The notes beneath the pieces were generated by a model. It searched no databases, was not told the DNA's origin, and saw nothing but the letters and a program-made list of their open reading frames with translations. A stretch of DNA of 51,692 nt, taken from contig JABWCP010000023.1 in the NCBI GenBank assembly GCA_013360215.1, positions 1 to 51,692 of the forward strand, given 5' to 3'. This document shows positions 13,417 through 51,692 of this stretch, one piece after another. The position numbers and the translations under genes are program-made. The stretch comes from a bacterium. GTDB taxonomy: Bacteria; CLD3; SB21. Position 1 is the stretch's first letter, and each line of letters begins with the position of its first letter.

Positions 13417-14657
13417 GAAAAATATTAATTTTAGTATATAGCTTTGTTTTCACTGCGTATGTTTATACGCAGGAAGAGGCGGATGCACGTGCGATAGGGA
13501 TGGCGTTCGCTCAGACAGCCGTTTCCGAAAATACGGATGCTTACCGATGGAATCCGGCAAACCTTGGTTTGAATTACAAACTCAAACCGAAATTAACGAT
13601 AGCGTACACCGGGTTTGGCTTTAACCATCGAAATAATATTTTTTCACGCACTGATTATAATAAATACAACGGGCGCGTTCTTTCGGAAGCCGACAAAGCG
13701 GATATTCGTGATCTTTTGAAAGGTAAGAAAGCGTTTGATTTTAACGGTTCCGGCGTCGCACGAGCACTCAGTGTGCAGTATAAAAATTATGCCGTCAATT
13801 TTGAAGCGGGTGGCAACGGAAATATGCAATTGCCGCGTGAAATTTTAGATGTAGTTTTTGCTAAAGATGCCTATGAAGTCGGTTCCGAAAACCTTAGCGC
13901 GCGTGGCAAGGGCGGCGGCATGGCCGCGTTGCGTACTTCGCTTTCGGCGGGTTTTCCGCTAACCGGTTTATTTGATAAACACATTCGCGAAATAGCCGTC
14001 GGCGCCACGCTTACGTATATGCGCGGAGTAAAACAAGTCACAATAAAAGATTTTCGTGCCTTTATAGCAGAGTCGGATAGTTTTATTACCGGAGCAAGAT
14101 TTCACACGCGCCAGTCTTCCGGCGGTAATGGTTTTTCCGTTAGTTTTGGAGTCAGCGCTCAGATCAACAAAGAATGGTTTGCAGGCATTAGCGTGATAGA
14201 CGTATATAGCAACATGCAGTGGGAAACACTGAATGAAAAACGTGTGGCCCAGTTTGATGTGCGCAGCGAGGATATTTTTAATGCCAAGAAAAAATCCGTA
14301 GATACGACGATTTACGGAGGACAATATTCTACCCGTTTGCCGGGAATACTTCGTGCCGGAGTCGGCTACCAACTGGATAAAGAATGGCTTTTAGCCGGCG
14401 ATATTGAGGTGATACTACATAATGCGCCTGGAAATGTGACGTCTCGTATTGCAGTCGGAGCTGAAAACCACCGCTGGCGCAAGGTTATTCTTCGCAGTGG
14501 CCTCAGTGTCGGTGGTGTCAACCAAGGTTTAGATATGGCACTCGGTGCCGGTTTTTTGATGGGAAAAACAATTCTTGATGTGGGCACGAATAATCTCGAA
14601 GGTATGATTTCTCAACGCAGCTTCTCTTTTGCATTGCAAATAAAGACCGTATTTTAA
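13413..14657 (+). CDS. Outer-membrane beta-barrel protein (DUF5723/FadL/TraF-like)
   Basis: Signal peptide; ARAIGMA...WNPANLG N-terminal motif of FadL/PorV-like barrels; amphipathic strands; C-terminal Phe. Confidence 0.75.
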   Translation: MRKILILVYSFVFTAYVYTQEEADARAIGMAFAQTAVSENTDAYRWNPANLGLNYKLKPKLTIAYTGFGFNHRNNIFSRTDYNKYNGRVLSEADKADIRDLLKGKKAFDFNGSGVARALSVQYKNYAVNFEAGGNGNMQLPREILDVVFAKDAYEVGSENLSARGKGGGMAALRTSLSAGFPLTGLFDKHIREIAVGATLTYMRGVKQVTIKDFRAFIAESDSFITGARFHTRQSSGGNGFSVSFGVSAQINKEWFAGISVIDVYSNMQWETLNEKRVAQFDVRSEDIFNAKKKSVDTTIYGGQYSTRLPGILRAGVGYQLDKEWLLAGDIEVILHNAPGNVTSRIAVGAENHRWRKVILRSGLSVGGVNQGLDMALGAGFLMGKTILDVGTNNLEGMISQRSFSFALQIKTVF

Positions 14658-50637: not shown

Positions 50638-50721
50638 ATTGATGAATATTGACCCGATTATTGTACCGATTGTAATACTTTTTGATGTGGCTTTCAACAA
50701 GAAAGGAGAACGGAGGAGTGT

Positions 50722-50755
50722 AAAAAAAAAGGCTGTTCCAAAGTTGGAACAGCCT
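50722..50755 (-). terminator. Intrinsic terminator after the RRM gene
   Basis: AGGCTGTTCCAA / TTGGAACAGCCT stem followed by a T9 tract on the minus strand. Confidence 0.85.
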
Positions 50756-50782
50756 GTATCTTTAATCGAGATATTTGCTCAA

Positions 50783-51085
50783 TTATTGATCTTTACGAAA
50801 ACCGCCGCGATCACGGCCGCCGAAGGGCTTTTTTTCCATCGGTTTGGCTTCGTTGACGATCAGAGGACGTTCCATAAAGGAATAGTTATGGAACATTTCT
50901 TTGGCTTTTTCAGCTTCTTCAGCCGTTGCCATTTCGACAAAACCAAAGCCTTTGGACTTCCCCGACAACTTGTCTACAATGATTTTGGCTGAGGTGACCG
51001 AACCAGCTTGCGAAAAGAGCTGGGTAAGACCATCGTCATCAGCGCGGTAGGACAGGTTGCCCACGTACAGTTTGTTTGAGTTCAT
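50783..51085 (-). CDS. Single-RRM RNA-binding protein with Gly/Arg-rich tail
   Basis: RNP2 LYVGNL, RNP1 KGFGFVEM, VNEAKP, GGRDRGGF tail. ATG at 51085 follows AAGGAGA. Confidence 0.95.
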   Translation of the reverse strand: MNSNKLYVGNLSYRADDDGLTQLFSQAGSVTSAKIIVDKLSGKSKGFGFVEMATAEEAEKAKEMFHNYSFMERPLIVNEAKPMEKKPFGGRDRGGFRKDQ

Positions 51086-51126
51086 GCGAACATCTCCTTC
51101 AGAAAAAAAAATCATGGGTTAAATAC

Positions 51127-51160
51127 AAAAAACCTCAAAGCGCCCATTCACTTTGAGGTT
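51127..51160 (-). promoter_or_regulatory. Terminator-like hairpin in the 5' leader of the RRM gene
   Basis: Minus strand AACCTCAAAGTG-AATGGG-CGCTTTGAGGTT then TTTT, about 40 nt before the start codon. Confidence 0.55.
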
Positions 51161-51305
51161 GTAAAACTTTATACACACGAAATGGCTTTAAGACGGGAAT
51201 AAGTCACAAAGACAAGACCGGAAAAAGAATACTTGCTCAATCGAGCATCGAAACTTTTAAAACAATTAACAAATAACAAAAAGCATTCACACTGCTTACA
51301 ATTCA

Positions 51306-51334
51306 AATATGACTAATGCATAAAACGAAGTCAA
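51306..51334 (-). promoter_or_regulatory. Putative sigma70 promoter for the RRM gene
   Basis: Minus strand TTGACT, 17-bp spacer, CATATT. Confidence 0.55.
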
Positions 51335-51423
51335 GAAAATAATTAAGTAATTTTTCAAACGGCACAGAAGGGAAATCGGGGCTAGTTTTAGACCGTTTGA
51401 TGCGGCATGGAGTAAAAACAAAT

Positions 51424-51452
51424 TTGACATTCGAGAGGGAATCAGCTATATT
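51424..51452 (+). promoter_or_regulatory. sigma70-type promoter upstream of the tRNA-like repeat array
   Basis: TTGACA (51424-51429), 17-bp spacer, TATATT (51447-51452), with an A-tract upstream; 35 nt before the first unit. Confidence 0.75.
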
Positions 51453-51487
51453 TTTTGCGACCAAAAAAGATTATATGTACAGCTATT

Positions 51488-51692
51488 GCGAGTGCAATTT
51501 AGTGGTAGAATGTTCGTCACGCAAAATGCGTGACTGGACGTCGCGAGTAAGATTACAAAGATAACTGATACCTAGTCTGAGAAGTAATAAGACAGTATTT
51601 AATGCGAGAGTAATTCAGTGGTAGAATGCCGTCACGCAAAATGCGTGACTGGACGTCGCGAGTAAGATTACAAAGATAACTGATACCTAGTC
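51488..51692 (+). repeat. Tandem direct repeat (~116-bp period, at least 2 units, cut by window end) of tRNA-Gly-derived 5' fragments
   Basis: Units start at 51488 and 51604. 51515-51577 is identical to 51630-51692 (63 bp). Each has an acceptor 5' strand, D-arm, variable loop and T-stem 5' strand, but no anticodon loop or 3' half. Confidence 0.88.

Follow-up and report, generated by a model that had tools for sequence, protein, structure and literature searches.

What is a head-to-tail array of truncated, tRNA-Gly-like units doing behind a near-consensus promoter at the very end of a bacterial contig? The array occupies positions 51424–51692 of contig JABWCP010000023.1 (assembly GCA_013360215.1), whose 51,692 nucleotides (nt), read on the forward strand, constitute the window analysed here; this window forms the end of contig C39 within a 3.72-Mb genome of 56 contigs (44.8% G+C). 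An earlier note on this DNA offered two readings, namely a transcribed array of tRNA mimics (decoys or processed small RNAs) or the footprint of a tRNA-directed repeat element situated upstream of an intact tRNA-Gly gene beyond the window edge. Judged from their sequence, the units look like a pair of dead 5' fragments of tRNA-Gly(CCC) and not like working mimics. The explanation that we favour, and consider probable though by no means assured, is that non-functional 5' fragments of this gene arose by local duplication, were colonised by a palindrome resembling the repetitive extragenic palindromic (REP) elements, and are co-transcribed with the intact gene as part of its leader.

Anatomy of the units and of the tRNA-Gly(CCC) locus

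A repeat finder returns two direct repeats with a spacing of 115–116 nt, each composed of a 63-nt block with 100% identity (51515–51577 and 51630–51692) that is preceded by a 29-nt block with 86% identity (51484–51512 and 51600–51628). The tRNA-like part of unit 1, the older and more diverged copy, spans 51488–51545 on the plus strand, where it reads GCGAGTG-CA-ATTT-AGTGGTA-GAAT-G, TTC, the palindrome GTCACGCA-AAA-TGCGTGAC (51516–51534) and T-GG-ACGTC-GCG, and is followed by an A-rich spacer of 58 nt (51546–51603, plus strand) that is similar at its ends to the leader preceding unit 1 (AAGATTA ... ACAG.TATT). Unit 2 (51604–51660, plus strand) reads GCGAGAG-TA-ATTC-AGTGGTA-GAAT-G-CC and continues with the identical palindrome (51631–51649), the same GGACGTCGCG and the same spacer, which begins on the plus strand at 51661 and is interrupted by the contig end at 51692. 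Both units retain the 5' acceptor strand, the D arm (ATTT/GAAT in unit 1), the variable loop (ACGTC) and the 5' T-stem strand (GCG), and both are devoid of the T loop and of the 3' strands of the T stem and acceptor stem, with neither CTCGC nor CTCTCGC present in either. As a consequence of the missing 3' strands, a unit is unable to close an acceptor stem alone. The earlier note had described the promoter boxes, the two repeats, the cloverleaf parse of unit 2, the missing 3' strands and the end of the window inside the repeat, and all of these descriptions hold. The segment that it labelled as an anticodon arm is instead a perfect palindrome in both units, with 8 pairs flanking a 3-nt centre (8+3+8) where an anticodon arm would have a five-pair stem and a 7-nt loop.

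The parent of the units is found on the adjoining contig C48, the first 96 nt of which match the last 96 nt of C39 exactly. Spacer 2 continues on C48 and runs into an intact tRNA-Gly(CCC) gene (locus L002, 124–196), recognised by ARAGORN and by the Rfam tRNA model with 65.5 bits, which starts approximately 28 nt past the final base of the window; the intact tRNA-Gly anticipated beyond the edge thus exists. Unit 2 is identical to tRNA-Gly(CCC) over positions 1–27 and again over GGACGTCGCG, which comprises the variable loop and the first bases of the T stem, and between these two matches the AGCTTCCCAAGC of the tRNA corresponds to the 19-nt palindrome of the unit, which takes the place of the inner anticodon stem and loop. 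The 63-nt exact repeat together with the 27-nt exact match to the tRNA excludes a chance origin. Compared with unit 2, unit 1 has three substitutions within the first 13 nt (U8 is lost through one of them), as well as GTTC instead of GCC; all substitutions between the units fall within the first 27 nt, and the only difference across the following 89 nt is a 1-nt indel.

The units themselves are not tRNAs as Rfam defines them (RF00005), having no match to the model, no closed acceptor stem and T arm and no normal anticodon arm. ARAGORN finds 0 tRNA genes in the whole window, and three Rfam scans with E-values up to 10 yield no tRNA-model match in the units, the matches in the window being four weak chance ones that all lie outside the array. 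An array of tRNA-mimic decoys or processed small RNAs finds no support here, since the units do not match the tRNA model, unit 1 has lost U8 and carries three more changes within its tRNA-like part, and the palindrome is found elsewhere in both orientations.

Downstream of tRNA-Gly(CCC), a long hairpin with a T run, which appears as a terminator-like stem in the predicted fold, is followed by a TPR-like gene. Given the exact overlap of C39 and C48 and the extension of C48 into the tRNA, the simplest tiling is promoter, unit 1, unit 2, tRNA-Gly(CCC) and terminator, so that the array probably has two units only. Could the duplication be an artefact of assembly? The window ends inside the repeat, precisely where the assembler broke the contig, but unit 1 lies well inside the contig and differs from unit 2. 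Moreover, run X7, a DNA run from a separate study, contains a 9,906-nt contig extending into unit 1 as well as short contigs that join the spacer to a unit and the spacer to AGCTTCCC, the true anticodon arm, and two other genera show the same arrangement inside their contigs. An artefact is excluded by the independent run and the relatives. In the population sampled by X7, spacer 1 exhibits two substitutions, one 6-nt insertion and one 1-nt insertion relative to the window, indicating that the spacer evolves freely. Both spacer forms together reach about 1.6 times the depth of the flanks, a value that is not a copy number, the unit count being taken from the tiling alone. The runs that contain the window come from activated sludge and bioreactors.

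Upstream of unit 1, a sigma-70-type promoter is predicted on the plus strand at 51424–51452, with TTGACA at 51424–51429 separated by a 17-nt spacer from TATATT at 51447–51452. The two boxes agree with the consensus at 11 of 12 positions and form the best of three promoter-like sites within 51100–51692 and the sole strong match ahead of the array and the tRNA. A search of the spacer before tRNA-Gly(CCC) (L002, 1–400) for a promoter-like site found none. Unit 1 starts 35 nt behind the -10 box, and in relatives a promoter of like type lies immediately 5' of tRNA-Gly(CCC) or of the first unit. Both the consensus match and the recurrence of this promoter type before the tRNA in relatives make it plausible that the predicted promoter drives the array. 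Three metatranscriptome runs from three studies (X15, X16 and X17) were compared with 50700–51692 as contigs, which cover 50760–51285 only (a gene for an RRM protein and the region upstream of it); because contigs seldom hold small structured RNAs, this comparison says nothing on expression of the array. The RRM gene (50783–51115, minus strand) encodes a small RNA-binding protein of 110 amino acids, has a strong terminator-like hairpin upstream on the same strand (51131–51160), and is syntenic with tRNA-Gly(CCC) across the order.

A palindrome family in partial tRNA copies

Is the palindrome private to this array? The pattern TCACGC-N3-9-GCGTGA occurs at 17 sites in the genome, compared with 1 for a reversed control pattern, and among the G+C-rich families in a census that counted 1,569 perfect hairpins, TCACGC..GCGTGA ranks first. 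Of the 17 sites, ten reside in partial tRNA copies beside the parent gene, comprising 3 in the Gly array (its two units, counted over the two overlapping contigs), 3 at tRNA-Ala(CGC), 1 at tRNA-Val(TAC) and 3 at tRNA-Arg(CCT); the genome has 46 tRNA genes, and 0.74% of it lies within 300 nt of one. In this respect the reading as a footprint of a tRNA-directed repeat process is largely borne out, with the hairpin belonging to a dispersed family found mostly in partial tRNA copies.

The position of the palindrome differs from gene to gene. Upstream of tRNA-Gly(CCC) it replaces the inner anticodon stem and loop in two units. Upstream of tRNA-Ala(CGC) on contig C32 (175075–175400, minus strand), three 5'-partial units have their D loop replaced by TCACGCC-GTG-GGCGTGA and their anticodon arm replaced by a second palindrome, TCCCGC-TTGAAG-GCGGGA; the cut lies in the T loop in two of these copies and in the anticodon stem in the third, shorter one. 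A single copy upstream of tRNA-Val(TAC) on C45 spans positions 1 to approximately 35, is cut in the anticodon loop and has its D arm replaced. Downstream of tRNA-Arg(CCT) on C37, by contrast with these upstream 5' copies, there is a 50-nt tandem array of 3' partial copies (14464–14627, continuing at the end of C47 on the reverse strand, with a 25-nt exact overlap of the two contig ends), in which each unit consists of an 18-nt native downstream spacer, the variable loop, TCACGCC-AAC-GGCGTGA for the T arm and the 3' acceptor strand; this array also reaches a contig end and breaks the assembly. Additional 3' copies accompany tRNA-Val(CAC), where a TCCCGC palindrome stands at the place of the T arm, and tRNA-Lys(CTT), where the decayed copy has no palindrome. 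Read in the sense of the tRNA, the palindrome loop is GTT at Val and AAC at Arg, such that both orientations relative to tRNA transcription are represented, which argues for an element acting at the DNA level and against an RNA motif.

With respect to its distribution the family behaves as REP elements do, being present at many extragenic sites far above chance, albeit with a copy number that is low for a REP family. At 11 of the 17 sites one strand has the dinucleotide CG ahead of TCACGC, but GTC is then paired within the stem. We looked for a cognate REP-associated tyrosine transposase (RAYT) flanked by the same repeat and found that the single Y1_Tnp gene of the genome (C32, 154047–154391) is flanked by other palindromes, namely ATTCCC..GGGAAT and GAAA(C/G)CC..GG(G/C)TTTC. 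This RAYT-like gene lies in a 159-amino-acid frame with its own palindromes on both sides (C32, 153880–154500), a locus that looks REPtron-like and distinct from the tRNA-linked family. Likewise, 5 Y1_Tnp loci examined in 4 genomes among relatives (of 14 matches) are flanked by other palindromes. A RAYT as the mobilising enzyme was therefore rejected, having failed the flank test in this genome and at the 5 loci of relatives. The idea that the palindrome came from a local template switch was likewise set aside, inspection by eye revealing no nearby inverted copy in the window. A further assembly-breaking repeat family is seen in two contig-end arrays (C4, 98411–98728, and C49, 17–211), which alternate the palindromes GTTCCCGC-TTTC-GCGGGAAC and CACCCGCG-TA-CGCGGGTG with a spacing of about 100–180 nt.

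Units and palindromes across the order

Do related genomes carry the same arrangement? The order is represented in the collection by 18 genomes, this one (G000) included, and the gene order of RRM gene, tRNA-Gly(CCC) and TPR-like gene is syntenic across it. The 5' motif of tRNA-Gly(CCC) is present at the locus in 17 of the 18 genomes, three of which have units there (two in this genome, one in G002 and two of 151 nt each in G003), the other 14 being without a unit. G002 and G003 are metagenome-assembled genomes from other genera of the same order within the Bacteroidota, and their units lie inside contigs, at the orthologous locus. In all three genera the unit ends at GGACGTCGCG and a palindrome stands in place of the inner anticodon arm. 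The palindrome itself is not the same, as the units of G002 and G003 carry GTCCCGA..TCGGGAC, and those of G003 have an additional palindrome in the D loop. The pattern TCCCGA-N3-8-TCGGGA is found in all 18 genomes (3–27 sites, versus 0–3 for controls) and is rarest in this genome, the only one in which the TCACGC family is expanded (17 sites versus 0–6 in the 17 other genomes). This distribution indicates that the hairpin of a unit follows the palindrome family of its own genome. In a tree of a single gene, MurE, the three unit-bearing genomes do not form a clade: this genome groups with G004 (support 99/97) and G003 with genus g9 (89/91), so that unit presence needs three state changes, at least two of which are forced by well-supported branches.

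An alternative explanation is that the units function at the RNA level, as a structured leader or a decoy transcribed with the tRNA. As a leader, they would compete for the 3' acceptor and T-stem strands of the tRNA and thereby tune RNase P processing and the level of a rare tRNA; in the decoy case, stable small RNAs with a hairpin would be set free from the transcript and would bind a nuclease or a protein that binds tRNA. Such roles are consistent with the location of the units between a near-consensus promoter and the tRNA, with no promoter-like site in the spacer, and with the same architecture at the orthologous locus of three genera, although 14 of the 17 genomes having the locus do without a unit. 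In the minimum-energy fold of unit 2 and the tRNA, GCGAGAG is paired with the 3' acceptor strand of the tRNA, yet unit 1 has lost conserved tRNA features and the spacer has acquired indels between populations. Pairing is also preserved between families, which differ by two double, pair-keeping changes of the stem (GTCACGC/GCGTGAC versus GTCCCGA/TCGGGAC), and two of the three differences between the G003 units keep pairing as G-U on the sense strand. These stem changes, however, track the genome-wide family and not this locus, and at other tRNAs the palindrome appears in either orientation and in different arms. Considering also that the units belong to no Rfam family and receive no RNA support from the runs compared as contigs, we regard a functional leader or decoy as improbable.

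Beyond tRNA-Gly(CCC), 10 of the 23 TCCCGA sites examined in G003 lie in partial or degenerate tRNA copies, which include 5' units of Arg-CCT cut in the T loop, 3' copies of Tyr and Gly-TCC, and Thr-CGT, Gln-like, Ser and Phe copies. At the tRNA-Phe(GAA) locus of G003 (L081, 1005–1460, contig C5), the intact gene is followed by three degenerate copies with several different palindromes, two of them full-length, each having a terminator of its own and an acceptor stem that closes, and one partial; in one copy the T arm has become a perfected palindrome, GGCGGAA-A-TTCCGCC. These copies could be expressed as tRNA-like RNAs, and the presence of palindromes in such degenerate copies indicates that palindromes enter copies after duplication. 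For G010, 4 of 22 TCCCGA sites examined are in tRNA-derived copies, most sites being the tips of longer REP-like composite palindromes. The tRNA-Gly(CCC) gene has other neighbours of this kind: G016 has two TCCCGA palindromes directly upstream, one of them behind a short AATTCAG copy (L015, 930–980), and G010 has a 3' partial copy downstream in which a palindrome replaces the T arm (L018). Thus, the kinds of copy that the tRNA-Gly(CCC) gene attracts vary between genera.

We also considered whether the partial copies are scars of site-specific integration, left by tyrosine-integrase elements that inserted at tRNA genes by crossover in the T loop or anticodon loop, thereby duplicated part of the gene and were later deleted, with palindromes subsequently invading the copies. 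The breakpoints do cluster where integrases classically act: the cut in 5' copies falls in or at the T arm (Gly, three genera), in the T loop (Ala, and Arg of G003) or in the anticodon loop (Val), and 3' copies start on the 3' side of the anticodon loop (Val-CAC and Lys in this genome, Gly-TCC in G003, Gly-CCC in G010) or at the variable loop (Arg, and Ala of G010). Work by Williams from 2002 reportedly places integrase crossovers in the T loop and the anticodon loop of tRNA genes. Nevertheless, each of the 5 tyrosine-recombinase genes (PF00589) of this genome is more than 8 kb away from all six tRNA loci that have partial copies, and what would be the element left between copies amounts to only 14–60 nt. 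Furthermore, the copies form head-to-tail arrays of near-identical members, and degenerate full-length copies with their own terminators exist, which integration does not make. Integration normally duplicates the 3' part of a gene, whereas here it is the 5' part (positions 1 to ~52); the earlier note had made the same remark on integrative elements, which is fair as it stands, but the partial copies of this lineage include both 5' and 3' parts. We therefore consider integration scars doubtful.

How far does the Gly-type unit extend beyond the order? A narrow pattern for it, applied to one genome per species (185,579 species), matched 3 stretches, namely those of G002 and G003 and one chance match in a high-G+C stretch of an archaeon. 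In 241 million metagenome records, a scan that may omit records close to this genome, the same pattern matched 7 stretches, all of high G+C, coding-looking by eye and none with a tRNA. Palindromes of the TCCCGA type also tip a variable 16S helix (TCCCGA-TTTC-ATCGGGA) and a 23S helix in the rRNA of G003 (L026 and L027), and this form of the 16S helix recurs in several genomes of the order. A link between the palindromes and rRNA was dropped, the 16S of this genome (C11, ~79540–79560) having CTCCGG..CCGGGG, which belongs to neither family.

Origin of the units and relation to known systems

How could such units arise? The starting points, which are observed directly, are the anatomy of the units, the intact tRNA gene, the palindrome family with its link to tRNA copies, and the occurrence in relatives. 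From these we infer an order of events that would begin with a local duplication that took in the leader and roughly 52 nt of the gene, from its start to the 5' T-stem strand, and left a single truncated copy between the promoter and the intact tRNA-Gly(CCC). In this redundant copy, the genome-specific REP-like palindrome would then have overwritten the inner anticodon stem and loop, a replacement that would kill a live tRNA gene and is accordingly seen in selection-free copies only. The old unit and the tRNA gene would subsequently have undergone unequal crossing-over, turning one unit into two, which would explain why unit 2 combines the exact 5' 27 nt of the tRNA with the exact 3' part of unit 1. 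Finally, to judge by the position of the promoter and by the spacer devoid of promoter-like sites, the units would belong to a long 5' leader, probably transcribed together with the tRNA and lost on RNase P cleavage at the tRNA 5' end. The same two-step pattern of copying and palindrome replacement at several tRNA genes of this genome and of other genera points to a lineage-wide process at the DNA level that prefers the stem-loops of tRNA genes.

Several observations weigh against this account of duplication followed by palindrome colonisation. The identical cut in the T stem is found in three genera that are not a clade in the MurE tree, which random duplication does not predict, and the T arm is the site of the cut in 5 of the 7 5'-partial loci read, with 3' copies starting at the anticodon or variable loop; the shared cut needs either one old origin followed by several losses or a site-directed process. 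The spacers hold 30–35 nt that are missing from present leaders, indicating that plain tandem duplication is not the whole story. No agent that spreads the palindrome was found, the RAYT-like gene of the genome having other palindromes at its flanks, and 17 copies is a small number for a REP family. In addition, the pairing of the unit GCGAGAG with the 3' acceptor strand of the tRNA in the predicted fold suggests that the leader could affect tRNA maturation. Transcription of the units and their lack of function are likewise deduced from the sequence and not direct observations.

A more active mechanism would account for the recurrent cuts, although we assign it only a small likelihood. In this case, an as yet undescribed activity of this lineage would recognise the stem-loops of tRNA genes, cut or switch there, and write the genome-specific palindrome in their stead. 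If true, it would represent a miniature mobile element or a nuclease or recombinase activity targeting the cruciforms of tRNA genes, with arrays of tRNA-derived, palindrome-bearing modules as its products, and modules co-transcribed with a tRNA could tune its maturation by competing for the 3' acceptor strand.

Should duplication followed by palindrome colonisation be right, the locus would be one case of a lineage-wide habit in which redundant pieces of tRNA genes pile up and have their arms overwritten by the palindrome of the genome. REP-like repeats would thereby gain a defined niche, the stem-loops of tRNA genes, which provides a handle on how they spread without an evident cognate transposase, and the array would illustrate the growth of tandem arrays linked to tRNA genes, through unequal crossing-over with a live gene. 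If the leader affects the maturation of a single-copy, rare tRNA, this would be a new kind of control in cis. For annotation, it matters that such units break assemblies at tRNA loci, two contig pairs ending in such arrays, and that they may be mistaken for tRNA mimics. The value of the locus therefore lies more in the lineage-wide pattern than in the single array.

Which known system does the array resemble? A full-text literature search, with subscription journals outside its reach, found no description of palindromes replacing the arms of partial tRNA copies. The overall arrangement is similar, but distinct, to that of the tyrT (rtT) repeats of E. coli, which contain the 3' end of the tRNA, lie downstream, are co-transcribed and are thought to stem from unequal crossing-over. 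Both consist of units that are repeated head to tail next to a tRNA gene and contain part of that tRNA; here this part is the 5' two-thirds, with the units upstream of the gene and a dispersed palindrome in place of one arm. Closer to the tyrT form is the tRNA-Arg(CCT) array of this genome, where the palindrome occupies the place of the T arm. Remnants of att sites resemble the units in being partial copies that lie near an intact gene and break off in or close to the T, anticodon or variable loop, but differ in that no element or integrase is nearby here, the 5' part is copied and the copies stand in tandem with spacers of 14–60 nt.

A further parallel is provided by RNase P external guide sequences, which, together with 5'-half guides, are artificial or eukaryotic. 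Guides made of a tRNA 5' half, as the passages used here present them, direct tRNase Z (PMC2691602). As far as those passages go, a unit is comparable in being a 5' part of a tRNA without its 3' partner strands; neither a target nor processing is seen here. Template switching in replication makes or perfects hairpins, according to the parts of Monttinen and Loytynoja (2022, PMC8794818) drawn upon. It is alike, on that description, in being a DNA-level process that yields perfect stems, such as the perfected T arm in one tRNA-Phe copy of G003, but when acting locally it cannot account for one palindrome recurring at loci of a genome that are otherwise unrelated.

The palindromes themselves come nearest to the GTAG- and CGTC-tagged REP/REPIN repeats, which in the sections of Di Nocera et al. 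(2013, PMC3733652) relied on here are short perfect palindromes of 17–19 nt with variable loops, extragenic, dispersed, lineage-specific and present in either orientation; the CGTC type is reported there from Bacteroidetes and Chlorobi, without a dedicated transposase. Measured against that description, the palindromes of the array are likewise short, perfect, dispersed, lineage-specific and found in either orientation. Whereas CGTC is an unpaired tag in the REP repeats as those sections describe them (PMC3733652), here CGTC or GTC is contained within the stem, and the family has only 17 copies, over half of them inside tRNA gene fragments in which they replace a stem-loop. The feature thus shares traits with each of these known systems and is a full member of none.

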